DNA of 64,000 bases from a virus (Duplodnaviria; Caudoviricetes): the IMG/VR virus record IMGVR_UViG_3300035208_002115, one strand, 5' to 3'. Position numbers and translations under genes: made by a program. Below, one piece after another: positions 1,887 to 47,399 of this stretch (its first letter is position 1; every line of letters starts with the position of its first letter). A model generated the notes under the pieces. That model saw only the letters and a program-made list of their open reading frames with translations. It was not told the DNA's origin and did not search any database.

Positions 1887-2522
1887 TTATTTTGTTATAA
1901 CATCGTCATCATCACCGAATATTGTATAAATTTTATACGCCCTGATGAACTGAATCATACCTTTGTTAATGTTTTTAACAGAATCAGAATAGTGAAATTT
2001 CCTTTTCAGGTCATTCATAGCATCATCTAAACGTAATAAAAAGTGTTCAGGTGTATCCATAGTTCTGATATTATTGACAGTCTTTCCGTCTAACAATCTT
2101 TTCATGAAAAAAGACTGTTCAATAGAATCCAGAACTTCTTTTGATTTTTCATCGATATTTCGAATTAATTCCATTGTTTTTTCATTACATGAAATTAATT
2201 CGAATTCTATTTTATTAACATCACTCAGTTTTGCCCAGAAACGAACGCCAGCGTATATATGTTTTTTATTTTTATCTTTTGGTATTCTAAATGTCAGTGA
2301 ACTGAAATCACTAACACCTTTTCGGATATATACCCTGTCAACAGTCAAAATAGTATCTATTGGTATCGTAACTAAATAGTTTTTTTCACCACTTCGACTC
2401 CAACTAAATGTACCACCGATTTTTTCAATCATAGTTTTATTACGATATTCTGAATAAAGTATAAAATTCCAATCTTTAGTCAATTGTAACTGGCTTCCTA
2501 TTTCGGGTAAAAATAAGTTCAT
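1887..2522 (-). CDS. Hypothetical phage protein with C-terminal RxxKI tag
   Basis: LTVDRVYIRKG...RFWAKL motif; ends FIRAYKIYTIF. Confidence 0.7.
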   Translation of the reverse strand: MNLFLPEIGSQLQLTKDWNFILYSEYRNKTMIEKIGGTFSWSRSGEKNYLVTIPIDTILTVDRVYIRKGVSDFSSLTFRIPKDKNKKHIYAGVRFWAKLSDVNKIEFELISCNEKTMELIRNIDEKSKEVLDSIEQSFFMKRLLDGKTVNNIRTMDTPEHFLLRLDDAMNDLKRKFHYSDSVKNINKGMIQFIRAYKIYTIFGDDDDVITK

Positions 2523-2527
2523 GATTT

Positions 2528-3358
2528 TTAAGTTAGAGTGTTAAAGTCGTGGTCAATTTCCTTGACATATTCAATGAATTTCATTGTATTTTTTACATCT
2601 GGTGTTCTATGACCTAAATTAATACTATAATCTTTTAAAATTTTAGTTGGAGAACCACCCAATATGATAATACGGTTAGATAAATAAACAGCCTCGGAAA
2701 TGTCATGAGTTACTAAAAGAAATGTTATGTCTATTTCTGTATTGTAAAATAAAGTTAGTAAAAGACTTCTGATTTCATTTTTAGTTATGATATCCAGTGC
2801 AGACATAGGTTCATCCAATAAAAGTATTTGTGGATTAGAAACCAAATTTCTGGCAATAGCAACTCTCTGTAATTGTCCACCAGAAAGCTGGCCTTGTTTT
2901 GCCCATTTATATTCATGACCAGATAAACCAACGAAATCTATCATTTTGATAGCTTTTTCTTCTGCTTCTTTTTTGTTTGCCCCCTTTAAAATTAAAGGTA
3001 ACGATACGTTTTGTAGAACGGTGTACCAAGGAAATGATGAATATTCTTGGAATATCATCGGTATACGATTATCAGCAGAATGTTTTTTGCCATATATTAG
3101 AATTTCACCAGAAGTTGGTGTTTGTAAATCTGATAAATACTTTAGTAACTGTGATTTTCCACATCCAGAACGACCAATAATTGTTGTAAATTGTCCTTCA
3201 TTTTCAATATCATCAATTGCTAAATTGAAGTTATCAAATAACACACGACCATTTTCAAATTTTTGAGTTATATTAATATAATCAATAACATGAACCCCAT
3301 TTGTAATAGTTGGGTCTGGTTGTATATTCGTTTTTATATTTTCATCAAAATAATTCAT
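2528..3358 (-). CDS. ABC transporter ATP-binding protein (TauB/SsuB-like)
   Basis: Walker A GRSGCGKS, signature LSGGQLQRVAIAR, Walker B LLLDEP, H-loop VTHD. Confidence 0.95.
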   Translation of the reverse strand: MNYFDENIKTNIQPDPTITNGVHVIDYINITQKFENGRVLFDNFNLAIDDIENEGQFTTIIGRSGCGKSQLLKYLSDLQTPTSGEILIYGKKHSADNRIPMIFQEYSSFPWYTVLQNVSLPLILKGANKKEAEEKAIKMIDFVGLSGHEYKWAKQGQLSGGQLQRVAIARNLVSNPQILLLDEPMSALDIITKNEIRSLLLTLFYNTEIDITFLLVTHDISEAVYLSNRIIILGGSPTKILKDYSINLGHRTPDVKNTMKFIEYVKEIDHDFNTLT

Positions 3359-3359
3359 A

Positions 3360-4571
3360 TTATTTTACAAGATTTAGTTTTTGTAAAAATGTTTTCTTTG
3401 TTTGTGGCGGTGTAGTCGGATTGTTTGGTGGTGACTTTATTATATTTTTCTTACGATAAATATTATAATCATGAGGAAACATAAGTTTATGACTTAAATA
3501 AAATAAAACATCTTGTAACATTCCAACAACAATTATTATAATCAAAACTGACATAATAATATCAGTTCTACTTGTTTTTTCACCATTAAATATCATAGCA
3601 CCAACACCGCCTTCTTTATTTATAAGTTCGGCTACAATGATATAAGTCCAAGATATAGCAACAAGTAATCTAACATCTTTCCAAAATTTTGGCATGGTAG
3701 ATTTCCAATATACGTATATGAATTTCTGCCATTTTGATGCACCTAATGTATGTATAATTTGTTTATGAATACTATCAATATCATCAACCCTCTGAATCAT
3801 TGCAGGTAAAAGATAAATTAATATAGAAAATCCCATAAAGTAAATTTTCATATCGAATTTAATTCCAAACCATGCTATAAAAAGACCCGTTACGGCTGTG
3901 AGGGGTAAATAACGAGAAGCATTAATATTTGCACTAAACAAACCCCTAAATGCAGGGAATAGCGAAATAGCGAAACCAAATGGTATAGTAATCAACATTG
4001 CTGTTAAATAACCTGATAAATTCAATTTAACAGAATACCAAATGTTTATATAAGTATTACTTTGATGTAAAAGTTCTTTAAGTGTTATTAGTACTGTAAA
4101 TGGTGATGGAAGTATTTGAGGTTTATTAAACTGACATAAAACTATCCAAGTCAATAAAAAACCTATAACACCAAGTACAGAAAGAAATAAATGAATTTTG
4201 TTATTAACTTTTCCATCCATTTCATAAATACCGTATTTCTTCATATAAACAAGAATTCCGATATATAATGCAATACTGGATAATAATATTTTATTTAAAC
4301 CAAACAGTCCTTTGAAAAAATGAAAGATTACTGAATGAAAACATATAAATAAAAAAATAGTTATACCTATTTTTATTATTAACAGCCTCGTCTTCTTATT
4401 CAAATTTTTCATATAGAATAGTACCCCGATACCTATCACTATAATAAATACCAATATTTTACTCAAAATAGGTAAATCTCTTAAAAAATGAAGTATGGTT
4501 ACGGGAAAACAAATAAAACCTATAAGCATCACACTGATACTTATAATTATCCACATAGTTTTTTTACTCAT
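3360..4571 (-). CDS. ABC transporter permease (TauC/SsuC-like) with extra N-terminal TM segments
   Basis: LPSP motif, EAA-like HTLGASKWQ, SWTYIIVAEL, many TM helices. Confidence 0.9.
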   Translation of the reverse strand: MSKKTMWIIISISVMLIGFICFPVTILHFLRDLPILSKILVFIIVIGIGVLFYMKNLNKKTRLLIIKIGITIFLFICFHSVIFHFFKGLFGLNKILLSSIALYIGILVYMKKYGIYEMDGKVNNKIHLFLSVLGVIGFLLTWIVLCQFNKPQILPSPFTVLITLKELLHQSNTYINIWYSVKLNLSGYLTAMLITIPFGFAISLFPAFRGLFSANINASRYLPLTAVTGLFIAWFGIKFDMKIYFMGFSILIYLLPAMIQRVDDIDSIHKQIIHTLGASKWQKFIYVYWKSTMPKFWKDVRLLVAISWTYIIVAELINKEGGVGAMIFNGEKTSRTDIIMSVLIIIIVVGMLQDVLFYLSHKLMFPHDYNIYRKKNIIKSPPNNPTTPPQTKKTFLQKLNLVK

Positions 4572-4573
4572 TA

Positions 4574-4756
4574 TTATTGTTTTTTAGAAAATCTTCTATT
4601 CAAATATATACCAAAACCAATACCAAGCCCAATCAGTAATAAAAAGAAGAAGCCAATCAATGCTTTTAAAGCACCAACTATAAAAGGAAATATAAAATAC
4701 CCAGCACCACCAAGTATAATTATAACCAGTAATATAATAAATAACACCCTATTCAT
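4574..4756 (-). CDS. Small two-TM membrane protein
   Basis: 60 aa, two hydrophobic segments, inside the ABC operon. Confidence 0.7.
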   Translation of the reverse strand: MNRVLFIILLVIIILGGAGYFIFPFIVGALKALIGFFFLLLIGLGIGFGIYLNRRFSKKQ

Positions 4757-4838
4757 AATTTTAATTTTTTATATGATATTTAAAGAGAGGATGGTGATTT
4801 CTCACCATCCACTCAATCCAAATAAACAATACAACAAT

Positions 4839-6401
4839 TTAATTGATAACTTCAAAGTCAGTTCTACGATAATTTTCATTAGAACCAACACTTCCATCAG
4901 CAATAGCTTCCATAGACCCATTTCCAATTATAATAAATTTGTTTGGGTCAAAATTACCTTCTTTCACTAAGAAATTAGCAACGGCTTGCGCTCTTTTTTG
5001 AGATAATGTTTTATTATAGGCTGCATTACCAACGTTATCGGTATTTCCTTTAATACGAATACGTGCATCTCTTAATGATTTTGCTATACCGAAAAATTCT
5101 TTTTTGATGATGTATTTAGCATCTTCATCTAATTCGTAAGAGTTAGTAGCAAAATTGATAGAGGCTTTAATATTAGAAATAGCAGGTGCAGTAGACATTT
5201 CTTTAGTAATTGGTTCGAATTTTGGTGCTACTTCTGCTATTTGCTTAGAATCACTGGATAAATCGATAGCTTGTATTATTGAAATATCAGATACACTTCT
5301 CCAAGGAAGTGGTGACTTTGTTTGTCCAAGATTAGAATATATAACAGACATTTTTGTATACATTTCATCACCTGTTACACCAGTATAACTTGGATTTAAC
5401 CCGAAAAAGTTTACATTATCACCATAAGTGCAAAATCTAACCGCACCTAACATATCATAAGCTAAACCTGCATCAGATTCGTTACCTAAAAAATCTCTTG
5501 CAAAAACCTTTGCTACATGTTGTTTAGCTGTTTCACTATAAGTAACTTCAGCATTACCAATCATCCAAGCGGTAACTAACTTTTCAATAGCTTCTCTCTT
5601 TTTATTAATAGTTTCTTCAGAGAATAACATACCATCAGATACAATATTAGATGCCATTTTAGTATTAATAAGCTCTTTTGCGCCAGCAATTGCTTTTATA
5701 CAATCAACATTATCTGGATACCACACCATTGCAGCAGGTACAGAACCAGCTTTAAACATGCGAGAAGCTTCAATACCATCACGACATTCAATGATATTTA
5801 TATCTTTCAAGGTCATTTTGTTCAACTCCAAAAATTTAATTAAAGCTGTTTGTGAGGCTGTACCCATAGCAACAGCTACATCTTTACCTTTTAAATCTGA
5901 AATCTTTTTTATTGAAGGGTCAACAACCAGTGCATCAGCACCACGACTGATATTAACTGAAAATACTTGTTTTGCTTTTACCATTGAAACTGTACTTCCA
6001 GCACCCATATCAATAGATAATGCATCAGTTGTACAATAAACACCATCAATTTCACCAGAAGTTAAAGAACTACGACTATTAGATACAACATCTTGAATAT
6101 TTATAGTAAGTAATATTCCATATTCTTTGTACAATCTGGAATCTTTATTTGGAACGATACCATCATTCATTTCTAACATACCTGCACAACCAATGAATGT
6201 GTTGTAAGTAATGGTTAGTTTGACTCCAGATGAAAAGATATCTGAAATACCACCACCAGAAGATTTTTTTTCTGTTGATGTAGATTTAGAACCCGAATCT
6301 TTAATATTGGGTTTAATTACGAAAATAAAAAGAGCTGCTAATGCTGCTGCTATAATTATAGCAGCAGTAGCTTTACCTGCATTTGTTAATCCTGATAACA
6401 T
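4839..6401 (-). CDS. NMT1/SsuA-like substrate-binding protein fused to an OmpA-like peptidoglycan-binding domain
   Basis: N-terminal TM; SRGADALV, ISDLKGKDVAV; C-terminal INFATNS, GNTDNVG, NKTLSQKRAQAV, RRTDF. Confidence 0.85.
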   Translation of the reverse strand: MLSGLTNAGKATAAIIIAAALAALFIFVIKPNIKDSGSKSTSTEKKSSGGGISDIFSSGVKLTITYNTFIGCAGMLEMNDGIVPNKDSRLYKEYGILLTINIQDVVSNSRSSLTSGEIDGVYCTTDALSIDMGAGSTVSMVKAKQVFSVNISRGADALVVDPSIKKISDLKGKDVAVAMGTASQTALIKFLELNKMTLKDINIIECRDGIEASRMFKAGSVPAAMVWYPDNVDCIKAIAGAKELINTKMASNIVSDGMLFSEETINKKREAIEKLVTAWMIGNAEVTYSETAKQHVAKVFARDFLGNESDAGLAYDMLGAVRFCTYGDNVNFFGLNPSYTGVTGDEMYTKMSVIYSNLGQTKSPLPWRSVSDISIIQAIDLSSDSKQIAEVAPKFEPITKEMSTAPAISNIKASINFATNSYELDEDAKYIIKKEFFGIAKSLRDARIRIKGNTDNVGNAAYNKTLSQKRAQAVANFLVKEGNFDPNKFIIIGNGSMEAIADGSVGSNENYRRTDFEVIN

Positions 6402-15958: not shown

Positions 15959-16147
15959 TTACTCACAACTTTTTCCAAATATTTCTTCTATTTTCTTTTT
16001 TCGCTCAAATGAAATGTTTTTCTTCTCAAATTTCTTTTCGAGTTTTTCTAAATATTTATAAGCTTCGACTTGGGTTCTAAAATAATTATCACCAAAAACC
16101 CACAAACCACAATCCGAATTATATTCAACATAACTATAATCAAACAT
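15959..16147 (-). CDS. Small protein with C-terminal RxxKI tag
   Basis: Ends ERKKKIEEIFG. Confidence 0.65.
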   Translation of the reverse strand: MFDYSYVEYNSDCGLWVFGDNYFRTQVEAYKYLEKLEKKFEKKNISFERKKKIEEIFGKSCE

Positions 16148-16495: not shown

Positions 16496-16990
16496 TTATT
16501 CAAATAAATTTTCTATTTTAATAATATTCTGTGGACTTCTTCTCTCATCAAATATTTCAGATATCTTATCCATTCTAACTTTTTTGATGTCTTTATCATT
16601 GAAATATTCAAACCCAGAACATGTGTAAATAACTTTAGTATATCTTATATCACTGCTTTTACTATAATCCAAATCGAAAAATCCAGAATATCCAGTGAAA
16701 CAAAATTCATGAACTATAAAATAGTACATTATACTCCCGTCTTTTTGATGAAAATTAATTTTAACACCAATAGGTTTATCAATATATTTATTAAGTATTT
16801 CAAATGGATAATAAATATTATTTTTAGTGTCATAATTTTCATTAAACATATAATTATGAGACATTTTAGTTAGTGAGCTTGACAATTTATCACCGTCATC
16901 TATACTAAATATAACATCAAAAATATTAGCATATATAGGGTCACCATATCCAAAGCTTGCACCAACACTACTAAAATGAGGTAATGGCAT
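16496..16990 (-). CDS. Possible tail-tube-like paralog with RxxKI tag
   Basis: N-terminus MPLPHF...DPIYANIFDV resembles large-phage tube proteins (inference); RMDKISEIF. Confidence 0.5.
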   Translation of the reverse strand: MPLPHFSSVGASFGYGDPIYANIFDVIFSIDDGDKLSSSLTKMSHNYMFNENYDTKNNIYYPFEILNKYIDKPIGVKINFHQKDGSIMYYFIVHEFCFTGYSGFFDLDYSKSSDIRYTKVIYTCSGFEYFNDKDIKKVRMDKISEIFDERRSPQNIIKIENLFE

Positions 16991-16993: not shown

Positions 16994-17605
16994 TTAATCC
17001 ACTTTTTTTAATTCAAATTTTTCATCGAAAATTTGAATAACTTCTTTTCCAACAAAATGATTAACATCCTTAGAATCCGTTATGTCATCAATTTTATCCA
17101 TTCTGGCTCTGTTAATATCACAATTTTCAAATACAAAACCTGAGAATGTATAAAATACTTTTATATCTTCTCTATTATCATCATTTATATAATTAAATAG
17201 ATTACTTTTTATATTTTTTAATTCTTCTTCATCTTCGATTTTTATATCTCTATCATCACATTCATCAAGTATAGTATCATTGAAGAACCCAAATAAATTA
17301 AGATAAGATGTAAATTTGAAATTTTTTAGATGAATTTTAAACATTGGTTCTTCTTCACCATCGTTAAAATATTCAAAATATACATCAATATCTTTATTAA
17401 GAACATTATTAATAAGTTCAAATGGTATAATTATTTTTTTCTCATTACAATAACCAAATTTGAACTTAAACCATTTTGAAGTATGTCCAATACAAGCCAA
17501 TGATAATAAATCACCATCATCTATATCAAATCTAACATTATATTTATCTATTTCTCCGATGTCATATTTTTCATCATTGACATTATAATCTGGTAAAAAC
17601 TCCAT
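16994..17605 (-). CDS. Paralog of 16496..16990
   Basis: Shared IDDGDxLS, PFE, FxFTxY, YTxSGF and RMDKI blocks. Confidence 0.7.
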   Translation of the reverse strand: MEFLPDYNVNDEKYDIGEIDKYNVRFDIDDGDLLSLACIGHTSKWFKFKFGYCNEKKIIIPFELINNVLNKDIDVYFEYFNDGEEEPMFKIHLKNFKFTSYLNLFGFFNDTILDECDDRDIKIEDEEELKNIKSNLFNYINDDNREDIKVFYTFSGFVFENCDINRARMDKIDDITDSKDVNHFVGKEVIQIFDEKFELKKVD

Positions 17606-30755: not shown

Positions 30756-30935
30756 TTACGACCACTCAAACCAACCCCATGTTTTTTTATAAGATTTACC
30801 ATCAGGTACGTTTTGTTTTCTTACTTTCTTATTTGCATTCCGTTTCCAGAATTTTCCCTTTGGTTGTGTCCATCCACTGAACCAACCATTCTTCCTTTGT
30901 CCCTTTAAATTGGGATGAAAATGTAATTCTTTCAT
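30756..30935 (-). CDS. 59-aa basic, Trp-rich protein (not in ORF track)
   Basis: MKELHFHP...KRNANKKVRK..PDGKSYKKTWGWFEWS. Confidence 0.65.
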   Translation of the reverse strand: MKELHFHPNLKGQRKNGWFSGWTQPKGKFWKRNANKKVRKQNVPDGKSYKKTWGWFEWS

Positions 30936-30978
30936 ACTTTATATATAATTTTTCTTCAAGAAAGTTATTTTTAATTAG

Positions 30979-31050
30979 TACTCCCACGAGAACTCGAATC
31001 CCGATTTCATCGTCCGTAGCGACACGTTCTATCCATTGAACTATGGGAGT
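30979..31050 (-). tRNA. tRNA-Arg(ACG)
   Basis: ACTCCCA/TGGGAGT acceptor; CT-ACG-GA loop. Confidence 0.9.
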
Positions 31051-31053
31051 ATG

Positions 31054-31127
31054 TATTCGTGGGTGGCTTTGAACCACCGACCCCCAGCTTATAAGGCTGA
31101 TGCTCTGACCAACTGAGCTACACGAAC
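31054..31127 (-). tRNA. tRNA-Ile(TAT)
   Basis: TCAGC-CT-TAT-AA-GCTGG; canonical D/T arms. Confidence 0.9.
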
Positions 31128-31129
31128 AT

Positions 31130-31160
31130 AAAAAAACCTCGTTAAACAAACGAGGTTTTT
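31130..31160. terminator. Terminator-like hairpin immediately 5' of tRNA-Ile(TAT)
   Basis: aaaaaaCCTCGTT-aaaca-AACGAGGttttt. Confidence 0.75.
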
Positions 31161-31184
31161 AAAATATATTATTTGATTTACAAA

Positions 31185-31796
31185 TTAATATTTTAAATTC
31201 TCGTTCACAATACTTACTATTTGTGAAATATCACTTTCTTTTATTTCAAGACTTCGGAGAGTAACAAGGATTGCATCCACCCGACCATCCGAATCATACT
31301 TGCTTATATAAGTTTTAAATAATTCTGGGTCAAACTCGAAATTAGTTTGGTTGCCAGAAAATTTTGAATTACTTTTTGGAATAATTTGATGAGTATTCGA
31401 AGTATTATTCTTTAAATACTCTTTATCCATGTAGAAATCCAAAAGTGGTATAATCGTATACCCAAGGCTGCCAAGTGATAATTCGATGCATGTACCACCC
31501 AACTTTGTTTCAAAGAAAACATTTCTTATGTAACCAAAAATCGATTGATTCTTCTGAAACGTAAGAGGAATCTTTGATTTACAATTCTTTTCATCGTATT
31601 TCGGTAATACCATTTCCTTTTTAGCAAGAAATGTAACCCTACTACCAAGAGATAAATCATTCAGAAATTTTTTATTCGGTTCACCATCACACACAGGGCA
31701 GGTGTGAATAGTTTTATCCATCAAATCATCAGCCGAATAAACAATATCGCATTTAGCGCAATAAAACCTTTGAAAAGTAAATAATTTATTTTCCAT
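31185..31796 (-). CDS. Hypothetical protein with N-terminal Zn ribbon
   Basis: CAKC...CPVC. Confidence 0.7.
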   Translation of the reverse strand: MENKLFTFQRFYCAKCDIVYSADDLMDKTIHTCPVCDGEPNKKFLNDLSLGSRVTFLAKKEMVLPKYDEKNCKSKIPLTFQKNQSIFGYIRNVFFETKLGGTCIELSLGSLGYTIIPLLDFYMDKEYLKNNTSNTHQIIPKSNSKFSGNQTNFEFDPELFKTYISKYDSDGRVDAILVTLRSLEIKESDISQIVSIVNENLKY

Positions 31797-31823
31797 ATGA
31801 ACACATTTAGTTATACAATATAA

Positions 31824-32078
31824 TTATAGTTTATTATTTTTTGTTAAATATCGTAATGGCACTTCTCTAAAATCTATCCCCCTTTCCCCGTCAAATATAG
31901 ATGGAGTTTCGACTAATGTTCTGGGTTCATCATATTCTTCACCAGTTTTTCCATCTTCAAATATAGGATAATAAACAATTCTCCATAATTTTGGTTTACC
32001 ATCCATCGTATATTCATCACCTATTTTATGTTCTTTCCAGATTTCGTTAGAAAGTGCATTCTGTAATTGTTCACTCAT
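31824..32078 (-). CDS. Hypothetical protein
   Basis: ORF track. Confidence 0.65.
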   Translation of the reverse strand: MSEQLQNALSNEIWKEHKIGDEYTMDGKPKLWRIVYYPIFEDGKTGEEYDEPRTLVETPSIFDGERGIDFREVPLRYLTKNNKL

Positions 32079-32087
32079 TATTTATTT

Positions 32088-32369
32088 TTAATATAAACCA
32101 GATTCCAAATACCATTTCCAATATTCAGCTTTCCATATCATAGGATTACTTTTATCCTCTATTAAAGATGGTGGGTATGCTTTTTCAGCTTCAGATACCA
32201 TTTTGTCAATATGGTCTTTATGCAATTCATACCAAACCCTTACACCACATCTTTGATTTATCGTTAAAATTTTAAATGCGTTTTTAAACTTAAAATCATC
32301 ACGCACTTTAGATTCATCATATATGATAGGTTTTTTTGACCTTTTTAAAAATTTTAAATTGAACTTCAT
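32088..32369 (-). CDS. Hypothetical protein
   Basis: ORF track; ATG (MKFNLK) preferred start. Confidence 0.6.
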   Translation of the reverse strand: MKFNLKFLKRSKKPIIYDESKVRDDFKFKNAFKILTINQRCGVRVWYELHKDHIDKMVSEAEKAYPPSLIEDKSNPMIWKAEYWKWYLESGLY

Positions 32370-32373
32370 ATTT

Positions 32374-33144
32374 TTATTTTTTAACAGGTTGCATCCAATT
32401 AGCGAACAATTTGTTAGTATCAATGATGAAATGACAATGTTGTAACTTCACCATAATAACAGCTATTTCTCTACTGATTCCTCTGGATTGTAAGTAAAAT
32501 ATTTTATCTTCATCCTCACTGGTAAAATGTTCTTTCGCTTTCACAGCACCACCATTCATAGCATCCGATAAAACATCGGTATATATGGTAACATCTTCAA
32601 CCATTTCAAAACCACTCGGTAAAATATAATCAAAATTATTCTTACCCTTCAGTATTTTCACAAACTGTATTTCAAAAGGTAATGTTAACAAATAAGAAAA
32701 TAAATCTTTTTCTTTTTTTATCAATTCTAAGGTTTCAATTTTACCTTTTAAAACCTTCAAATCAGCATTTTTACTGTTCCTGTTTATATCATTCAATTTG
32801 CGTTGCAGCATTTCAACTGATAATCTTTTAGATGATTTCTTCGCCCAGTAAACATTGTAGCCGACATCAGATTTAACCTTCACCCAAGAACCACTATCAA
32901 CATCCTTTCCAACTAAATGAGGGAAAAAATTCTGAACCTGAACATATTTATCGAATAAAATATCATCGAAATCATCAATTAAACCACAGTTTAATGTCAA
33001 ATCTAAATAATCAAAAAAATGTTCTTCAATTTCTTCGAATATACCTTCTTCCACTTGTTCAGTCCACGATGCTATATTTAAAAAATCTGCTTCCATTGCA
33101 TCAGCCGATTTCATTATGTTATTTCTTATTATTTTAGTCCTCAT
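32374..33144 (-). CDS. Protein with SufB/SufD-like C-terminal motif
   Basis: EDKIFYLQSRGISREIA matches the SufBD FYLxSRGI helix. Confidence 0.55.
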   Translation of the reverse strand: MRTKIIRNNIMKSADAMEADFLNIASWTEQVEEGIFEEIEEHFFDYLDLTLNCGLIDDFDDILFDKYVQVQNFFPHLVGKDVDSGSWVKVKSDVGYNVYWAKKSSKRLSVEMLQRKLNDINRNSKNADLKVLKGKIETLELIKKEKDLFSYLLTLPFEIQFVKILKGKNNFDYILPSGFEMVEDVTIYTDVLSDAMNGGAVKAKEHFTSEDEDKIFYLQSRGISREIAVIMVKLQHCHFIIDTNKLFANWMQPVKK

Positions 33145-33207
33145 ATCTGCATATTTTATGAGTCAAAAATAATAAAAGAAATATTATAAAAAAAATTACA
33201 GAGAATA

Positions 33208-33363
33208 TTAATTAGATTTTAAGTAAAAGCTTTTAATCACAGGTAATTCAAACATATCATCAACACCATTTGGGACATCACAATCATAATGTTTTCCTTT
33301 ATAATAAATCCAATAATGACTTGGTAATCCTATTTCCTCAAAATTGTCTGGTTTATTATCATG
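33208..33363 (-). pseudogene. Start-less 51-codon open frame in-frame after the TAA of 33364..33567
   Basis: HDNKPD...HYWIYYKGKHYDCDVPNGVDDMFELP; protein-like, no ATG at its 5' end (only Met is codon 37). Confidence 0.45.
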
Positions 33364-33567
33364 TTACCAATCTTCAGTACCACTTATCGTAAAATCTTCA
33401 TTCAATAAATTATCATGAACTGATTTAAGTGTGCCTAATCCTGTGGGAGTAAAAGAAAATGTCCACCTTTCACCTGCTAAAAAAGTCGTTGGGTCTTTTT
33501 CTATTTGGGACTTCTGCCACTTTTCGGTCTTTTTTTCTTCTTCAGGTGTTAATTCGAATTTTGTCAT
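33364..33567 (-). CDS. Hypothetical phage protein
   Basis: FSFTPTGLG motif. Confidence 0.7.
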   Translation of the reverse strand: MTKFELTPEEEKKTEKWQKSQIEKDPTTFLAGERWTFSFTPTGLGTLKSVHDNLLNEDFTISGTEDW

Positions 33568-33571
33568 ATTT

Positions 33572-34057
33572 TTATTTTAAAACAGATAATGCTTTTTTAG
33601 TATTTACAATCCTAATGTCCATCGGAACAGAATTATCAAAACTCGTTAAACTATCATCATAAATCTGGTCATAATGAAGTTTTTTATAGTCCAAAGGTAT
33701 TCTTTTATTATAAAAAATAGAATACCAACTAATATATTCTGGAAATTTTTCAATTATTTCAATTAATTCTTCTACATTATATTTTGGGTTTTCCAATATA
33801 TTTTTCATAAAAGACGGAAATACTTTTAAATCTTTATATTTATCAATGAAATCCATACTCACTTTTACATTTCTTAATGCATGTTCAAACTTATACCGAA
33901 AATCAGAAAATGATGAATCGTTTAGTTTTCTAAGAAGTATAGACCAATCTTTATAACCAATAAAAGCCAGAATAGCCTTACGGTCTTCTTTTAGATTATC
34001 ATCCTGTCCGCTTTCATTTAAACGAAATTCTTCAAATGAGTTTATGTAATTATTCAT
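33572..34057 (-). CDS. Hypothetical protein, CTS-like N-terminus
   Basis: MNNYINSFEEFRLNES (ATG 34057), TAATATATAA upstream. Confidence 0.7.
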   Translation of the reverse strand: MNNYINSFEEFRLNESGQDDNLKEDRKAILAFIGYKDWSILLRKLNDSSFSDFRYKFEHALRNVKVSMDFIDKYKDLKVFPSFMKNILENPKYNVEELIEIIEKFPEYISWYSIFYNKRIPLDYKKLHYDQIYDDSLTSFDNSVPMDIRIVNTKKALSVLK

Positions 34058-34109
34058 TGATATGTTTTTTTTATTATATATTAATTTTAATTTCAATAAA
34101 AATAAAAAG

Positions 34110-34183
34110 TGACCCCGATGGGACTTGAACCCATGACCCCCTGTTTAAAAGACAGGTGCATCTACCAACTGAGCTACGAAGTC
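34110..34183 (-). tRNA. tRNA-Lys(TTT)
   Basis: CCTGT-CT-TTT-AA-ACAGG. Confidence 0.9.
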
Positions 34184-34189
34184 AAAAAG

Positions 34190-34277
34190 TGGTCTCGGTG
34201 GGACTCGAACCCACAACCCTCATCTTAAAAGGATGATGCTCTCGCCTGACGGCTCGCCAATTAGGAGCTACGAAACC
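34190..34277 (-). tRNA. tRNA-Lys(TTT) with expanded D-loop
   Basis: TCATC-CT-TTT-AA-GATGA; 23-nt D-loop containing GCC-GTCA-GGC. Confidence 0.8.
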
Positions 34278-34283
34278 AATAAG

Positions 34284-34356
34284 TGGAATGAGTAGGAGTT
34301 TAACCTACATAAACGGGATTTCAATCCGTCACCTTGAACACCTCGGTCACCATTCC
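34284..34356 (-). tRNA. Degenerate tRNA (GAA in anticodon position; Cys-like body)
   Basis: GGAATGG/TCATTCC acceptor; ACGGA-TTGAAAT-CCCGT; non-canonical T-loop TTAAACT. Confidence 0.5.
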
Positions 34357-34362
34357 GATTAG

Positions 34363-34436
34363 TTCCCCCGACTGGACTCAAACCAGTGACCCACTGATTA
34401 AGAATCAGCTACTCTAATCAACTGAGCTACGGGGGA
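34363..34436 (-). tRNA. tRNA-Lys(CTT)
   Basis: GCTGA-TT-CTT-AA-TCAGT. Confidence 0.9.
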
Positions 34437-34442
34437 ATATTG

Positions 34443-34515
34443 TGGTATCGGGTGGATTTGAACCACCGACACTCGGATTTTCAGTCCGATGCTCTACCAA
34501 CTGAGCTACGACACC
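34443..34515 (-). tRNA. tRNA-Phe(GAA)
   Basis: TCGGA-CT-GAA-AA-TCCGA. Confidence 0.95.
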
Positions 34516-34532
34516 ATATTTCATATGGTCAC

Positions 34533-34617
34533 CTCGCCTGACAGGATTCGAACCTGCGACACAGGGATTTAAGCACATTTCCGATGTTCCCTTGTTCTAC
34601 CACTGAACTACAAACGA
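34533..34617 (-). tRNA. tRNA-like gene (Asn-like body) with 20-nt anticodon-loop insertion
   Basis: Canonical D/T arms; AGGGA-[ACATCGGAAATGTGCTTAAA]-TCCCT. Confidence 0.65.
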
Positions 34618-34619
34618 GT

Positions 34620-34880
34620 TTACCCATATGCCTACTCATAACCACTATTTACCCAGATACTTTCATCAACTACTAACCAATCTTACTAATAAATACTTCT
34701 CACACAGTGCCTGTCCGACCCTTCCTCGGCTCATGGTTTTTCTGAATCATCTACATTAGTAGAAATTGTATCGAAAAATGTGCGTTACACCTGCAAGTTA
34801 TACTTACTTCCAAATTAGGTTTTATCTCAGAGTTCACCGAATTTTCACGATTACTTTCAGAAAATTTTAAAACCTTCAAC
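34620..34880 (-). ncRNA. Putative ~260-nt structured RNA within the tRNA cluster
   Basis: No long ORF; TTTTCTGAA/TTCAGAAAA, TCGTGAAAAT/ATTTTTCGA, CCGA/TCGG, TATTTATTAG/CTGGGTAAATA pairings with G-U on the minus strand. Confidence 0.55.
34749..34767 (-). other. Solitary Cas12a-type direct-repeat handle AATTTCTACTAATGTAGAT
   Basis: Fits the type V-A handle AATTTCTACT-N3/4-GTAGAT; single copy, no array or cas gene in window. Confidence 0.55.
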
Positions 34881-34887
34881 CAACATG

Positions 34888-34896
34888 TCAAAGAAC
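34888..34896 (-). promoter_or_regulatory. boxA-like element GTTCTTTGA (further copies at 35246, 35351, 36080, 36186)
   Basis: Five exact copies seen, all in tRNA-cluster spacers. Confidence 0.7.
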
Positions 34897-34920
34897 TTCA
34901 ATCCTATTGGATTGATTAAG

Positions 34921-34996
34921 GGTGTCTGAGGGGAATCGAACCCCCGAATACAAGAGCCACAATCTTGCGTAGGAGACCAACGCCTACACCAGACAC
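34921..34996 (-). tRNA. tRNA-His(GTG)
   Basis: CAAGA-TT-GTG-GC-TCTTG; C73; G-1 not encoded. Confidence 0.85.
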
Positions 34997-34998
34997 AG

Positions 34999-35073
34999 TG
35001 TTCTGAGAGAGATTCGAACTCCCGACCCTCTGGGTGTAAACCAGATGCTCTGAACCAACTGAGCTATCAGAAC
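34999..35073 (-). tRNA. tRNA-Val(TAC)
   Basis: TCTGG-TT-TAC-AC-CCAGA. Confidence 0.95.
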
Positions 35074-35083
35074 TAATAAAAAG

Positions 35084-35157
35084 TGTTGTGAGAGGGATTT
35101 GAACCCCCGACCCCAACCTTATCAGGGTTGTATTCTAACCAACTGAACTACCACAAC
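35084..35157 (-). tRNA. tRNA-Ile(GAT)
   Basis: CAACC-CT-GAT-AA-GGTTG. Confidence 0.95.
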
Positions 35158-35261
35158 ATTTTATTTTTGGGTTTATTAAATTACTCATCTGAGTCCGTTA
35201 CCATAGGTAACCATCTACTTTCCATAATATAAATAACCCAATACATCAAAGAACATTTTTG

Positions 35262-35347
35262 CAGGGATGGTAGGGTTCGAACCCACACGGAATAAATCCG
35301 ACTTCGGTTTTGGAGACCGATGCCTTGCCAATTGAGGCTACATCCCT
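35262..35347 (-). tRNA. tRNA-Trp(CCA) with long variable arm
   Basis: TCGGT-CT-CCA-AA-ACCGA; variable arm CGGA-TTTAT-TCCG. Confidence 0.85.
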
Positions 35348-40830: not shown

Positions 40831-41304
40831 TTATTTTTTAAAATGTACTATTGTAACATCCATATCGACTAATTCAGTTTGAATAATATTCTTAATTCTG
40901 TTCCAGTTTCCACCTGCTAAACCTGAACATATGAGTGGCAAACCTATGGTATAGTCTTTATATACATTATTAATTTTTCTCATGCACAGTGTTAACGCCT
41001 CATAATCAACTTTAATAGAATCTGTACCATAATTATATTGAGTGTAAAGATTGAGTATATAACCAGTTATTTCATTCATCGAATTAAAAACTCTACCATA
41101 AGTGAAATTACCCAGTTTTGTGATATCCCTTTTTTTTGTTTCATTATCAGCACGAACAGCATCAGGAATTCTTGCTGCTATTTCTTTAGCTATACCAGAA
41201 CCCATTTTACAAAAACAATTAGCTCCATGTCCTATTAAATCGAACTGACCATCCAAGGCCATATCAATTAGATTACCTTCTATTTCTTTAAAGCTCCCCA
41301 TCAA
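40831..41304 (-). CDS. Macrodomain protein (Poa1p/T4 Tk.4-like)
   Basis: GNL, HGANCFCKMGSGIAK, NLYTQ, PLICSGLAGGNW. Confidence 0.9.
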   Translation of the reverse strand: MMGSFKEIEGNLIDMALDGQFDLIGHGANCFCKMGSGIAKEIAARIPDAVRADNETKKRDITKLGNFTYGRVFNSMNEITGYILNLYTQYNYGTDSIKVDYEALTLCMRKINNVYKDYTIGLPLICSGLAGGNWNRIKNIIQTELVDMDVTIVHFKK

Positions 41305-41743
41305 ATATTTCTTTTAATTTTTCTTTTCTTTCTTTTCTTAAAAATTCCTCATCTCTTAACATATCATATATATAATGGTCTGCTTGTATCGTACAATCTA
41401 CTGTATTAGTAGAATTGACAAGTGAAAACGGCATATCATATGAATTTAAAAAGCAACCATATACAGACATATTACCCTTAAAACTTCTCAATTCCATATC
41501 AAATTTAACAGATGAAACTGGAAAATTAGACACCCTATTTTTATTAAAAGCATCTAAAAAATATTGAAATGCGTTATTACACACCAATGTCATATTAATA
41601 TCTATACTATATGATACTGCTCGTAATGGATATCCAGCATTAATACCCATTCCATTGTTGAGGTTATTCTGGGATATACCGAATGACAAAACATTAAATA
41701 AATAACTTTGACCATCATGAGTTATAATACATTTATCAAACAT
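41288..41743 (-). CDS. Possible tail-tube-like paralog, RxxKL tag
   Basis: VYGCFLNSYD...CTIQADHY; ends ERKEKLKEIF. Confidence 0.5.
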   Translation of the reverse strand: MFDKCIITHDGQSYLFNVLSFGISQNNLNNGMGINAGYPLRAVSYSIDINMTLVCNNAFQYFLDAFNKNRVSNFPVSSVKFDMELRSFKGNMSVYGCFLNSYDMPFSLVNSTNTVDCTIQADHYIYDMLRDEEFLRKERKEKLKEIFDGEL

Positions 41744-42192: not shown

Positions 42193-42194
42193 AT

Positions 42195-42272: not shown

Positions 42273-42583
42273 TATTTGTTTTCTTTTTTATTCAGACTTC
42301 TTTGGTAAGATATCATTTTAGCAGCAATTTCAATCACATCATCCACGTCCCTGTATATATTATATCTGGCCTTCAGTTTATTTCGTATCTTTTCTATTTG
42401 GAATTCATCCTGATTTTCACTATCCAAACTTTCAATTTTCACTTGTCGTGTTAATTGTTGTTCAAGCATTTTATCTTTTGGGGATGGAGTTGGTTCTGGT
42501 TGTCCAAATATGTCTATAAATTCTCTTTTGGAATTAATAGTTATTGGTGGGTTTAGTGGTGGTATTTGTTTTAATCTTGCCAT
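42272..42583 (-). CDS. Hypothetical protein, paralog of 41797..42192
   Basis: PITINSKREFIDIFGQP N-terminus; KIESLD/AKMISY. Confidence 0.7.
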   Translation of the reverse strand: MARLKQIPPLNPPITINSKREFIDIFGQPEPTPSPKDKMLEQQLTRQVKIESLDSENQDEFQIEKIRNKLKARYNIYRDVDDVIEIAAKMISYQRSLNKKENK

Positions 42584-42912
42584 ATTTCTTTTATTTTTTC
42601 GGGTCTTAATAAAATTTTAAGTTTATTATCTTTTTTTGGATAAAATATTATAAATAAGTTATCAATTGATTGATGTACCACTGGTGGATGTTGAATATAT
42701 AAATTTAATTCTTTATTAAGAATTTTACATATTTTTATAAGATATGTTAATTTCGGAACAGGATATATAATAATTTTATAATATGGGAAAAACCCAACAC
42801 TGTTTCGATAAGTATCTTTTTCTATAATGACAGAATCATATACCCATTTGGTATGTTTTGAATATTTTTCACTTATTTTTTTTAACACTTCTCTTATTTT
42901 ATATTCTAACAT
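42571..42912 (-). CDS. Hypothetical protein, RxxKI tag
   Basis: Ends LRPEKIKEIW; TAAATTTG upstream. Confidence 0.65.
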   Translation of the reverse strand: MLEYKIREVLKKISEKYSKHTKWVYDSVIIEKDTYRNSVGFFPYYKIIIYPVPKLTYLIKICKILNKELNLYIQHPPVVHQSIDNLFIIFYPKKDNKLKILLRPEKIKEIWQD

Positions 42913-43962: not shown

Positions 43963-44322
43963 TTAGTAAATTATTTCTTTTAATTTTTCTAACCGAATAA
44001 TTCTTTTTAATGATTCATCGGTTTCGATTTTTATTTGTACCAATCCACTTTCTTCTATTTTAAAATAATTATAATAAGGGTGTAATATACCAAATAACGA
44101 ATAATATTTAAGATAATGAATATTATTTTTCAATAATATTTTAATTAATTCATCAGCAACAATATTACTATTTGTATCTCTTGAAAATGGTACTAACGTT
44201 AAAACAAATTCTGAAGAAATTTTTTCTATTGATGTTAACATCTTGTATTTCTTACAGAATTCTTTTAAAAAATTTATCATTTCCAATGATTCTGTATATC
44301 TGTTTTGTTTGGTATTAATCAT
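43963..44322 (-). CDS. Tandem paralog family member, RxxKL tag
   Basis: Ends IIRLEKLKEIIY. Confidence 0.7.
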   Translation of the reverse strand: MINTKQNRYTESLEMINFLKEFCKKYKMLTSIEKISSEFVLTLVPFSRDTNSNIVADELIKILLKNNIHYLKYYSLFGILHPYYNYFKIEESGLVQIKIETDESLKRIIRLEKLKEIIY

Positions 44323-44696
44323 TCTAAAATTTCTTTTATTTTTTCTTTTCGGTTGTATTTTTTTAAACCATCAAGATGTTTAACTTCTTCTATTTTATAA
44401 AAATTATCACTTAAAATTCTAAAATAGTCACCCCATTGTTTTGGTATGTTGAAATATCCACGAGAAAAAAACCGAATAAATATAATATTATTATCATTCA
44501 AATACTTTAAGAAAATTTTATTATCAAGAATACCTATTAAAGGAACTGTTGTCGTAAATGATATAATAGTTATAATGGTTGTATCTTCGGTTATCATATC
44601 TACAATTACATCAACTCTATAATCATGAATAAAATCGACTAAATAATCACAAAATTCTTTGGCTAAACTTTTATGTTTTCTTAATTCTAATATCAT
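44319..44696 (-). CDS. Tandem paralog family member, RxxKI tag
   Basis: Ends YNRKEKIKEILE. Confidence 0.7.
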   Translation of the reverse strand: MILELRKHKSLAKEFCDYLVDFIHDYRVDVIVDMITEDTTIITIISFTTTVPLIGILDNKIFLKYLNDNNIIFIRFFSRGYFNIPKQWGDYFRILSDNFYKIEEVKHLDGLKKYNRKEKIKEILE

Positions 44697-45043
44697 TCTA
44701 AAATTTCTTTTATTTTTTCACACCTTATAAATTGGTCAAATGAATCATCATCTAAAGATAATTTTTTATTTATAATTTGAGCCAGACCTGTACTATGAAT
44801 TTTGTAATATACATGAGGATAAAATAAAGAATCCCTTAAAAACATAGCATTTCTTCGAATATATATAAACCCAGAATCATATAATAACCTGTAAAAATTG
44901 TCAAAATAAGGTCGAGAAAAATCTTCATCGTCACAAGACAAAATATAAACACCTTTATGATTTATAATAGTCACTTTATCTTTATTATCTGTCAACCAGT
45001 TAATAATTTGCACTTTATCCCGTATATAGTTATAATCTTTCAT
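44693..45043 (-). CDS. Tandem paralog family member, RxxKI tag
   Basis: YRLLYDSGF; ends FIRCEKIKEILE. Confidence 0.7.
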   Translation of the reverse strand: MKDYNYIRDKVQIINWLTDNKDKVTIINHKGVYILSCDDEDFSRPYFDNFYRLLYDSGFIYIRRNAMFLRDSLFYPHVYYKIHSTGLAQIINKKLSLDDDSFDQFIRCEKIKEILE

Positions 45044-45045
45044 AT

Positions 45046-45387
45046 TTAACTTAAAATATTTTTAAGTTTTCGTAATTTAATTATTTTCTTCAATTTATCA
45101 TAATCTTCATTTTCTGTGTCATATAAATGCGTAAGTGAACCATCACTATTTATTTGATTAAAATCATAATACTTAAATGGTATTGATGCATTAACATGTG
45201 TTTCGTATCCAATTTTTATTTTTACAACATAACTGAAACCATCTTCATACAACAAACGGTATGTATCTTTCGTTACATCTAATGTCCTAAATTTAAGAAC
45301 ATATACATTTCTCAGTCCAATAATTTGATAATTGGATTGGTTTTGGTACATCCAATGTGCTATAAATGTCCTTTCATCGTTATTCAT
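45046..45387 (-). CDS. Tandem paralog family member, tag variant
   Basis: YRLLYEDGF; ends IKLRKLKNILS. Confidence 0.7.
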   Translation of the reverse strand: MNNDERTFIAHWMYQNQSNYQIIGLRNVYVLKFRTLDVTKDTYRLLYEDGFSYVVKIKIGYETHVNASIPFKYYDFNQINSDGSLTHLYDTENEDYDKLKKIIKLRKLKNILS

Positions 45388-45727
45388 TGAATATTTCTTT
45401 AATTTTTCGTTTCCTTAAAAATATTATAAGTTCTGTTTCTGATGTAACTTCATCATTTATATCAATGAATTTTAATTTTTCGTTTATTAAAAAATAATAA
45501 TCTTTAAACTCAGGCGAAAATATGGAACTATTTACATCTTGTGTTTTTTTCCTTTTTATAAGCACTCGAACACCATCTTCATATAAAAAACGGAATACTT
45601 CAATTCGGGGTTCTAAAATATCTGAGTAAATCTTAACTACTTTAACATTACCTATATTATTGATAGATATCGCAGACCTATTATCATGAAGAAAACTAAT
45701 CAAATACATTCTATCGATATCAGTCAT
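45380..45727 (-). CDS. Tandem paralog family member, RxxKI tag
   Basis: FRFLYEDGV; ends LRKRKIKEIFNE; TAAATTTG upstream. Confidence 0.7.
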   Translation of the reverse strand: MTDIDRMYLISFLHDNRSAISINNIGNVKVVKIYSDILEPRIEVFRFLYEDGVRVLIKRKKTQDVNSSIFSPEFKDYYFLINEKLKFIDINDEVTSETELIIFLRKRKIKEIFNE

Positions 45728-46348: not shown

Positions 46349-46357
46349 AAATATAAA

Positions 46358-46696
46358 ATGAAATTTGTACAAACTTTTGAAAGTTATAAAAAAACAGATG
46401 AGTCCGAAGAATACTGGTGGGTAGTTGTTTACCCAAATACTGATTTAAAAGAGCATAAGACTATTGTTGCTGTTGGATGTAAATCTGATAAATCTGGTGA
46501 TAGTTATGTTGAAAAATTTAATAATATATCTGATATAAAGGTATATAATGTTGAATATTATGGTAAAGCTACCTTGGCTAAAGTTAAAGAATATTACAGT
46601 GATTCAGATAAGGACATGGATTATATTTTAGCACATGATTATAAATCTTTCGGTGAAGTTAACAGGTATGTTTATAAAAAAATATATAAAGAATAA
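46358..46696 (+). CDS. Hypothetical protein, CTS-like N-terminus
   Basis: MKFVQTFESY. Confidence 0.7.
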   Translation: MKFVQTFESYKKTDESEEYWWVVVYPNTDLKEHKTIVAVGCKSDKSGDSYVEKFNNISDIKVYNVEYYGKATLAKVKEYYSDSDKDMDYILAHDYKSFGEVNRYVYKKIYKE

Positions 46697-46764
46697 ATTT
46701 TTTGTTCAATTTTAAGTGATGTTCACGTTACATGAACAAACAAAAATAATAAACATAAAAGGGG

Positions 46765-47079
46765 TTATTTAACTCCTTTTATTTTTTTATAAAATTCTAT
46801 ATATCTTTCTGCTGCTTCCTTATTGTGAAATTGTACTTTATCAGCAATTATAGTTTTACCATCTTGTTTTATTTTAAATGGTGTCCAACCCCAAAAATAC
46901 CTTTTCACGAGTGGTCTAAACAAAATCATGTTACCTTTTTTAACTTCTATTAATTTAAATTGTAAATTTTTTGACGGAAATTTTAAACCATAGGCCGTTA
47001 ATAATTTATATGCTAATAATATAAAAATAAACATCACTATCAATGATATATACCCTTCATAACCAGAAATAAAACTCAT
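46765..47079 (-). CDS. Membrane-anchored protein
   Basis: N-terminal TM; TAATATATAA upstream. Confidence 0.65.
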   Translation of the reverse strand: MSFISGYEGYISLIVMFIFILLAYKLLTAYGLKFPSKNLQFKLIEVKKGNMILFRPLVKRYFWGWTPFKIKQDGKTIIADKVQFHNKEAAERYIEFYKKIKGVK

Positions 47080-47108
47080 AATTTTAATTTTTTATTTTTA
47101 TATATTAA

Positions 47109-47399
47109 TCAAATATTATTAAATATTTTATTTATTTTTTTCTTTCTTAAATTTCTTTTTAAATCACTAATACTACACGTTTTATCACCAACTTTAATCC
47201 CAAATAATTTTAATACATTGCTTTTGTTACTAAATTTATCAAAAATAGATTTTCCGACATAAAAAAGGCAACCTTCATTACCATGTTTTAAAAATAATTT
47301 ATAATCATCTATTGTTTGTTGATAGTAAGTGATACCAGTCCCCATAAAAACAACTTCTATGTTATTATCCAGCAAAAAATCTTTATCCAAATACCACAT
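47109..47399 (-). CDS. Hypothetical protein, RxxKI tag
   Basis: Ends LRKKKINKIF. Confidence 0.65.
   Translation of the reverse strand: MWYLDKDFLLDNNIEVVFMGTGITYYQQTIDDYKLFLKHGNEGCLFYVGKSIFDKFSNKSNVLKLFGIKVGDKTCSISDLKRNLRKKKINKIFNNI

Follow-up and report, generated by a model that had tools for sequence, protein, structure and literature searches.

A portable C-terminal R-x-x-K motif on small proteins of a 675,678-bp virus genome

The C-terminal tag in the window and in the genome

The window analyzed here is the final 64 kb of the 675,678-bp virus record IMGVR_UViG_3300035208_002115 (referred to as G000; 98% complete according to CheckV, 27.4% G+C) and contains small genes whose products share a peptide at the C-terminus, R-x-x-K-[IL]-x-x-[IL], referred to as the RxxK tag. 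Positions within the tag are numbered from the Arg (position 0), which places the Lys at position 3, the two aliphatic residues at positions 4 and 7 and a Phe at position 8. A sequence-only reading of the window had listed 23 open reading frames (ORFs) with this peptide or a variant of it, and all 23 coordinates proved to be the stop-codon end of an ORF with the C-terminal peptide it had given. Twenty of the window ORFs match the search pattern R..K[ILM]..[ILM] no more than 20 residues from the end (table 1). The gene set of the complete record was defined as the greedy longest ORFs (n = 1,154, 93% coverage), a procedure that is crude but unbiased.

Overall, 170 of the 1,154 G000 proteins, about one in seven, carry the tag within 20 residues of the C-terminus. 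Shuffling of whole proteins gave 3.6 ± 1.9 C-terminal matches and shuffling of the last 30 residues only gave 5.6 ± 2.2. Internal matches remained at background (28 vs ~23 expected, the C-terminal zone accounting for only 15% of the residues), as did N-terminal matches (7), and the reversed motif was matched three times. The comparison of C-termini with shuffled and internal controls that the sequence-only reading had proposed therefore came out in favor of the tag (170 matches vs 4-6 expected, no internal excess). The logo of the tag region is [K/I/L]-x-x-[I/E/L]-R-K-[L/E/K]-K-[I/L]-[K/E]-E-[I/L]-[F/L]-[D/G]-[D/E], with a core consensus of R-K-x-K-I/L-x-E-I/L-F, and is followed by 0-19 variable residues (mode 3, counted from the [I/L] at position 7), typically a stretch of 1-10 in which acidic residues are frequent. 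The tagged proteins (clients) are small, with a median of 114 amino acids (aa), and are present in nearly all 25-kb bins of G000.

Table 1. Coordinates of tagged genes and of other features in the window, elsewhere in G000 (positions in the record or in loci L001 to L028) and in related genomes
Feature	Position	Strand	Tag codons	Tag peptide and remarks
Window, tagged genes
Tagged gene, 211 aa	1887-2522	(-)	1917-1943	R-A-Y-K-I-Y-T-I-F then GDDDDVITK
Tagged gene, 62 aa	15959-16147	(-)	15977-16003	R-K-K-K-I-E-E-I-F
Tagged gene, 164 aa	16496-16990	(-)	16550-16576	R-M-D-K-I-S-E-I-F + 19 residues; paralogue of 16994-17605
Paralogue, 203 aa	16994-17605	(-)	~17078-17104	R-M-D-K-I-D-D-I at residues 168-175, 28 residues before end
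Tagged gene, 127 aa	18380-18763	(-)	18395-18421	R-K-E-K-I-K-E-I-F
Tagged gene, 53 aa	20164-20325	(-)	20173-20199	R-K-L-K-I-E-E-I-L
Three tandem paralogous mini-genes, 54/58/54 aa	23938-24102, 24080-24256, 24253-24417	(-)	23947-23973, 24101-24127, 24262-24288
Acb3-family (anti-CBASS) protein, 237 aa	24410-25123	(-)	24416-24442	R-M-K-K-I-E-T-I-Y
Tagged gene, 98 aa	25703-25999	(-)	25712-25738	R-K-L-K-I-K-E-L-Y
Tagged gene, 150 aa	26000-26452	(-)	26021-26047	R-I-K-K-L-N-N-I-F
Variant-tagged gene, 146 aa	29556-29996	(+)	29952-29978	R-M-M-K-M-K-S-I-G
Tagged gene, 166 aa	30265-30765	(-)	30289-30315	R-K-E-K-L-N-D-I-F; 3' end overlaps predicted tRNA-Ser 30198-30288
Tagged gene, 151 aa	41288-41743	(-)	41303-41329	R-K-E-K-L-K-E-I-F
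Mini-ORF, about 25-30 codons	42195-42272	(-)		Nearly all tag: L-R-R-E-K-I-K-S-L-F-N-D-L; remnant or free tag peptide
Tagged gene, 113 aa	42571-42912	(-)	42580-42606	R-P-E-K-I-K-E-I-W
Five tandem remote paralogues, 113-125 aa	43963-45727	(-)	43969-43995, 44325-44351, 44699-44725, 45389-45415	Copy 45046-45387 has Lys for the tag Arg (K-L-R-K-L-K-N-I-L)
Tagged gene, 96 aa	47109-47399	(-)	47121-47147	R-K-K-K-I-N-K-I-F
Window, other features
ABC-ATPase paralogue and permease	2528-6401 (2528-3358 and 3360-4571)	(-)
NMT1-like binding protein fused to OmpA domain, 520 aa	4839-6401	(-)
Phage-encoded protein with GmrSD_N restriction-endonuclease domain, 835 aa	8603-11110	(+)
BCS1-like AAA ATPase (BCS1_N + AAA)	20561-21859	(-)
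Nucleotide-sugar epimerase/dehydratase, 660 aa	21872-23854	(-)		Split by intein with LAGLIDADG domain; relatives align to the two flanks only
12 tRNA genes in two groups	30198-35347	(-)
N-terminal motif like that of T4	51434-52219			Weak case
HNH endonuclease (phrog_5200)	56230-56721	(-)		Unusually conserved: 86% identity to 640-kb relative, 56% to LR756502.1
Elsewhere
N-terminal motif like that of T4	L001:13988-14380, L006:1004-2428
PKD repeats + CHU_C domain, 974 aa	L002:528-3449	(+)
Zincin-vWA peptidase, 567 aa	L010:4817-6520
MazG-like protein with internal tag, 171 aa	G000 291443-291958 (L015:11443-11958)
Tagged cut-out of peptidase linker, 85 aa	G000 542144-542401 (L028:2144-2401)
Tagged cut-outs of major capsid protein	G000 223891-224205; LR756502.1 277261-277446; LR756501.1 145891-146127
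Proteins ending in D-P-Y-G-E-E-x-W	LR756501.1 499642-503452, 552409-555773 (loci L119-L155)

Selection on the peptide, its clients and its dialects

The invariant Arg of the tag is encoded by all six Arg codons (AGA 77, CGA 37, AGG 28, CGT 13, CGG 9, and CGC 6) and the I/L positions by a mix of ATA, ATT, TTA, CTT, and TTG codons. The position of the tag is tied to the stop codon of its own gene (standard deviation 9 nucleotides, nt) and not to the downstream start codon (standard deviation 38 nt), 25 of the 170 tagged genes have no downstream gene on the same strand, and the pattern is ~50-fold rarer per codon in the five other reading frames. Variants that change R0 to K or K3 to R occur at background level at C-termini even though the proteome contains three times as much K as R, and Val is found at positions 4 and 7 only 0-1 times. 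The use of six Arg codons, the absence of R/K swaps and a spacing set by the gene's own stop codon show that selection acts on the peptide and not on the DNA, in agreement with the earlier claim that the codons differ and that the conservation is at the protein level.

A helical wheel computed from the logo places R0, K3, I4, I7, and F8 on one face and the variable positions opposite. Because the conserved face permits neither R/K nor I/V exchange, the tag looks like a specific protein-protein motif and not like a generic membrane helix. In AlphaFold2 models of two unrelated folds the tag falls within a terminal helix: at residues 224-236 on the beta-rich fold of the Acb3-family protein of the window (pLDDT 88) and at residues 108-124 on the alpha/beta body of the 125-aa client 44319-44696 (pLDDT 84), for which a Foldseek search returned no PDB fold match. 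The terminal helix predicted by the sequence-only reading is thus retained, but its description as amphipathic has to be qualified by the lack of exchange on the conserved face.

After removal of the tag, the 169 client bodies formed 162 clusters by blastp and 151 families by iterated profile searches. Paralogue sets within the window (23938/24080/24253, 43963/44319, 44693/45046/45380, and 16496/16994) reduce its 23 ORFs to ~17 independent families, so that the description of the bodies as otherwise unrelated is mostly accurate. The paralogues at 43963-45727 share 19-27% identity, and the tag is their best-conserved part. A known fold could be assigned to only a small number of clients (an ABC ATPase, the Acb3 anti-CBASS protein, a 5'-3' exonuclease, an ankyrin protein, and a DUF4987 protein).

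The Acb3 protein has 517 relatives (phmmer) and matches Pfam PF25187 with 90.1 bits (cut-off 27) over profile positions 20-241 of 245; Acb3 has been reported to be a direct CD-NTase inhibitor (bioRxiv 10.1101/2025.07.23.666291). The domain ends near residue 221 and the tag lies in the added terminal helix that follows. Among 30 aligned members of the family, 25 stop right past the conserved terminal helix without any extension, and a tagged extension of 16-22 residues (16 in G000) is present only in the lineage of G000. Similarly, an ABC ATPase encoded outside the window carries a 20-residue tagged extension that is absent from an 80%-identical orthologue. The added extensions on a complete Acb3 domain and on the ABC ATPase show that the tag is a portable C-terminal short linear motif, as had been suggested. 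Tagged cut-outs of larger phage proteins were also identified: an 85-aa tagged protein is homologous to the zincin-vWA linker of a 567-aa peptidase, and cut-outs of the major capsid protein carry the tag of their own lineage in three genomes (table 1). The tagged capsid-protein cut-outs may be decoys or assembly modulators.

A Shine-Dalgarno sequence was found at only 45 of the 1,154 G000 starts, and the leaders are A-rich. The dominant upstream motif, TTT-T[AT]ATATA[TA]A, is located 20-35 nt upstream of ~150 starts, and T[AT]ATATA[TA]A was classified as late-type because it precedes the starts of the terminase, tail-fibre, and tail-sheath genes by 18-50 nt. A different box, TAnnTTTG, presumably the Bacteroidota sigma-A -7 box and referred to as host-type, precedes the helicase, DNA polymerase, sigma factor, and vWA-peptidase genes. 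Tagged genes avoid late (TTAATATATA) units (21 out of 341 genes tagged, compared with 149 out of 813 elsewhere, p = 2e-8), and the host-type box is found ahead of 14 of the 20 tagged window genes, in line with the earlier remark that several tagged genes follow host-type promoters. Transmembrane-like segments are rare among the tagged proteins (6/165 vs 95/771 untagged, p = 5e-4). The clients are therefore predicted to be soluble and cytoplasmic and, judging from their promoter classes, to be expressed mostly early or in the middle of infection.

A separate N-terminal motif that resembles the capsid-targeting sequence (CTS) of phage T4, M-K-[YH]-[LI]-K-[TL]-F-E-x-[FY], is present on 40 G000 proteins, 31 of which are encoded in late-type units. 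None of these 40 proteins carries the C-terminal tag (Fisher p = 0.0025), so that the earlier observation that the tagged proteins lack a capsid-targeting-like N-terminus holds genome-wide. Because the CTS-like label marks a separate, mostly late set, capsid loading seems to have its own N-terminal label and the C-terminal tag seems to address something else.

The prohead protease and the major capsid protein of G000 are 52-61% identical to their counterparts in the 634-735 kb "Mahaphage" genomes, for which Bacteroidetes hosts were predicted (Al-Shayeb et al. 2020, PMC7162821), and LR756501-504 and LR745206 encode vWA-peptidases with 44-50% identity to that of G000. Protein homology and Bacteroidota-type host signals place G000 in the Mahaphage clade. 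Type-IX secretion is represented by a CHU_C sorting domain on a 974-aa protein with PKD repeats, a putative phage-encoded substrate of this system and a probable marker of the host phylum.

A relative of 639,979 bp contains 111 tags among 986 genes. The full motif is kept in 97 of 109 reciprocal-best-hit pairs between this relative and G000 with bodies that are 58% identical, and position 8, which lies outside the search pattern, is 79% identical. Tagged proteins diverge faster than untagged ones (median identity 60% vs 78%), and the tag itself is under purifying selection. In the published 642-kb genome LR756502.1, 112 of 995 genes are tagged. The dialect there, R-D-x-K-L-x-x-L-G-I, shares the R, K, I/L, I/L skeleton, but its position 1 is D, N, or E and never K and its positions 8-9 are L or G-I and not F. 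A homologue in LR756502.1 was detectable for only 8 of the 170 G000 clients, which indicates that the tag far outlives its cargo, and in six orthologous client pairs each protein carries the dialect of its own lineage. Literature searches found no published description of the tag, although it is present in record-size genomes that have been published, LR756502.1 among them.

The largest published phage genome, LR756501.1 (735 kb), contains the RxxK tag at chance level (3 of 1,051 genes). Approximately 40 of its proteins end in D-P-Y-G-E-E-x-W, a further 54 hold D-P-Y-G-E further inside, and ~10 end in R-T-[KE]-L-I-D-[KE]-M-L. The D-P-Y-G-E-E-x-W clients match RxxK-tagged proteins in 4 out of 8 cases, compared with 10 out of 339 for other proteins (p = 1e-4). 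A weak homologue of the window ORF 26000-26452 in the 735-kb phage ends in DPYGEENW, and both LR756502.1 and LR756501.1 have a cut-out of one shared C-terminal segment of the major capsid protein, with the terminus R-K-D-K-I-E-K-I-L in the former and DPYGEEDW in the latter. The labels of the different dialects thus look functionally equivalent and lineage-specific, and the lineage-wide change of dialect points to one co-evolving reader. No tag was found among 40 genes sampled from LR756500.1 (462 kb).

Candidate readers and competing explanations

The best reading of these data, to which a probability of roughly 70% is assigned, is that the tag is a portable terminal docking helix on ~150 unrelated families of small soluble accessory proteins that are produced mainly from host-type promoters and share one co-evolving reader. 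The tag would be appended to small, soluble, and fast-evolving accessory proteins, including cut-outs of the major capsid protein and the vWA-peptidase; these clients would be made mainly from host-type (early/middle) promoters, and the terminal helix would plug each of them into a common cytoplasmic reader that has co-evolved with the tag. We infer that a single reader exists and that it is phage-encoded. The earlier proposal that the tag routes many early proteins to one hub gains partial support from the genome-wide change of dialect, which points to a common reader, and from the host-type promoters.

The leading but unproven candidate for the reader is a MoxR-like AAA+ ATPase with its zincin-metallopeptidase/vWA partner, a tentative assignment, judged less likely than not, made because the pair sits among tagged genes and because the peptidase linker has a tagged 85-aa cut-out. 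The genes for the 430-aa MoxR-like ATPase and the 567-aa zincin-vWA protein adjoin each other behind a host-type box. The HExxH and MIDAS (DxSxS...T...D) motifs of the zincin-vWA protein are invariant in 40 homologues, and its DUF2201_N and DUF2201 vWA domains score above the Pfam cut-off. The candidate pair might bind the helix while its vWA MIDAS site takes up the acidic tail or the free carboxylate, and might then remodel or clip the client. It is possible, if less than probable, that giant phages run a system of tag-directed protein handling in which the MoxR/zincin-vWA pair or another dedicated reader of the lineage dialect remodels, clips, or delivers ~15% of the proteome.

Several points weigh against the docking helix and its candidate reader. 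The gene calls are a greedy longest-ORF set, the promoter classes rely on short consensus matches (TAnnTTTG occurs by chance in ~4% of upstream regions), and the presumed timing of the clients is derived from these promoter motifs. No tag-binding partner was identified among the candidates considered. The ATPase matches bpMoxR/AAA_3 only below the Pfam cut-offs, and the MoxR/vWA pair is older and more widespread than the tag, being present in LR756501.1 with its three RxxK tags among 1,051 genes. Furthermore, a MoxR-like gene is also found in LR756500.1, the MoxR and vWA-peptidase genes are 355 kb apart in LR756504.1, and a stretch of the peptidase linker that resembles the tag shows no co-variation with the dialect.

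The idea that the tag mimics this linker helix (L-R-K-x-x-K-D-Y-L-K-E-I-K-R…I-F-G) was rejected since this stretch is conserved throughout the family and does not differ in the lineage with the other dialect. The BCS1-like AAA ATPase of the window was dismissed as the reader since only a fragment with stop codons is left in the 640-kb relative, which keeps its 111 tags. A phyletic filter for genes present in three tag-positive genomes and absent from the 735-kb phage returned 35 untagged candidates, none of them convincing, with an SPFH/Band-7 protein, a NAD-ligase, RlaP, a phosphoesterase, an Acb1-like protein, a NUDIX protein, and an HNH endonuclease at the top; the filter has little power, given that the 735-kb phage has tags of its own. 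A "Rosetta-stone" search, aimed at fusions that place the tag ahead of a reader domain, yielded nothing beyond one MazG-like protein whose tag is internal. In this 171-aa protein a strong tag copy at residues 51-59 is followed by a MazG-like domain that reads as all-alpha, an arrangement that is kept in the 640-kb relative.

The reader might instead be a host hub such as RNA polymerase, the ribosome, the sliding clamp, DnaK, or FtsZ, with dialects that track different Bacteroidota hosts. The clients resemble anti-host or anti-defence effectors (Acb3) made from host-type promoters, a host switch would also give a change of dialect, and the clients include a 5'-3' exonuclease, which belongs to a class of enzymes that elsewhere docks on clamps via C-terminal peptides. 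However, the clamp-binder patterns Q-x-x-[ILM]-x-x-[FY][FY] and Q-L-x-L-F are absent, with no Q at the conserved positions, and conserved hubs rarely vary enough to turn K into D at position 1, which leaves a host hub unlikely. The odds are slightly lower for a degron that is recognized by an AAA+ protease (Lon, ClpXP, or FtsH of the host, or the MoxR/zincin pair of the phage) and clears early proteins on schedule. Placement at the C-terminus, early expression, and the presence of the zincin-vWA/MoxR pair would suit a degron, and a published parallel exists in zincin peptidases that cut conserved C-terminal peptides beside vWA-MoxR systems (PMC7159879). Known C-terminal degrons nevertheless sit at the extreme end and are tolerant, whereas here 0-19 variable residues follow a strict R/K/I pattern, and it is hard to explain why ~150 families should each keep a self-destruct signal under such selection.

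Loading of the clients into the procapsid for injection with the DNA, by a C-terminal analogue of the T4 CTS, the HK97 protease tail, or an encapsulin cargo peptide, is improbable. The clients are small, hypervariable, and anti-defence like T4 internal proteins (PMC3012670), and some are cut-outs of the major capsid protein, but the T4-like N-terminal motif (M-K-Y-L-K-T-F-E-x-Y) marks a mostly late-type and entirely untagged set, tagged genes are depleted from late units, and the prohead protease-scaffold protein lacks a terminal tag in every lineage compared. That the tag is an amphipathic helix for membrane targeting, like those of MinD or FtsA, is very improbable. The tag forms a basic and hydrophobic terminal helix, often with G next to it, and presumably bears a superficial likeness to MinD tails, but lipid-binding helices accept the K/R and I/V/L/F exchanges that the tag does not, E at position 6 and acidic residues past the helix disfavor membrane binding, and the LR756502.1 dialect has D at position 1. 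The chance that the conservation reflects a nucleic-acid signal (start context, translational coupling, promoter, or recombination site) or the relic of one exploded gene family, without any reader, is close to nil. The tag is A-rich like the unstructured leaders of a host that does without Shine-Dalgarno sequences, overlaps with the following gene are more frequent among tagged genes (median gap -4 vs +9), and some tagged arrays are paralogous; a signal in DNA or RNA is nevertheless largely refuted by the codon use (six Arg codons, mixed I/L codons), by the spacing to the gene's own stop codon, and by the frame controls, which show no frame-independent occurrence, and the tag is found on unrelated known folds and as an extension that orthologues lack.

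If a single peptide indeed directs about 1/6-1/7 of the proteome to one partner, it would open a way into hundreds of "hypothetical" genes together, mark a single functional class of early soluble accessory, anti-defence, and decoy proteins, and serve both as a bait for the common hub and as a portable tag for engineering. If tag-directed handling takes place, new accessory or decoy proteins would gain function by the mere acquisition of a tag.

Comparison with known systems

Short terminal helices with few invariant basic or hydrophobic residues place many unrelated proteins on one hub in the case of the p97 VIM/VBM, the Vps4 MIM, the PIP-box, and the T4 gp45-binding tails. None of the consensus patterns of these AAA+ N-domain and clamp docking helices fits R-x-x-K-[IL]-x-x-[IL]-[FL], and the PIP-box/clamp-tail consensus in particular differs from a tag whose invariant residues are R0 and K3. 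Encapsulin cargo peptides and the C-terminal capsid-targeting tail of the HK97 protease are portable C-terminal addresses to an HK97-fold shell, whereas the expression class of the tag and its exclusion from CTS proteins argue against capsid loading. Helices of the MinD/FtsA type are degenerate and tolerant of K/R and aliphatic exchange, unlike the tag, and ssrA-like degrons have a conserved extreme C-terminus with a free carboxylate where the tag is followed by its variable tail.

The bacterial vWA-MoxR-coupled peptide-processing modules (FxSxx-COOH, RxD, and acidic types) combine rapidly diverging small proteins that share a conserved C-terminal peptide with zincin metallopeptidase, vWA, and MoxR genes (Kaur et al. 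2020, PMC7159879). The same combination of variable precursors and a conserved C-terminal peptide is found here, with 151 families and one tag. In contrast, the bacterial modules belong to conflict systems in which one precursor or a few accompany the peptidase, whereas the ~170 clients of G000 are dispersed and carry an unrelated motif. A MoxR AAA+/metallopeptidase-vWA pair has also been described in group 2.2 jumbo phages, where a role in virion assembly was proposed and no client tag was mentioned (Iyer et al. 2021, PMC7824862). G000 and every Mahaphage genome tested encode this pair, which also occurs in genomes that lack the RxxK tag.

The T4 CTS (reviewed in Rao and Black 2010, PMC3012670) resembles the tag in being a short, conserved, and transferable peptide that is the sole common feature of diverse, fast-changing small phage proteins, some of them with anti-defence functions. 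It differs in being N-terminal, directly after the Met, in being removed by the prohead protease and in marking head-internal proteins, whereas the tag lies 0-19 residues from the C-terminus and only 21 of the 170 tagged genes are late-type, compared with 31 of the 40 CTS-like genes. The C-terminal tag is thus a second label, distinct from the CTS-like one, and the swapping of dialects on the same kinds of clients suggests a general organizing principle of huge-phage proteomes that would stand beside the T4 CTS and serve another destination.

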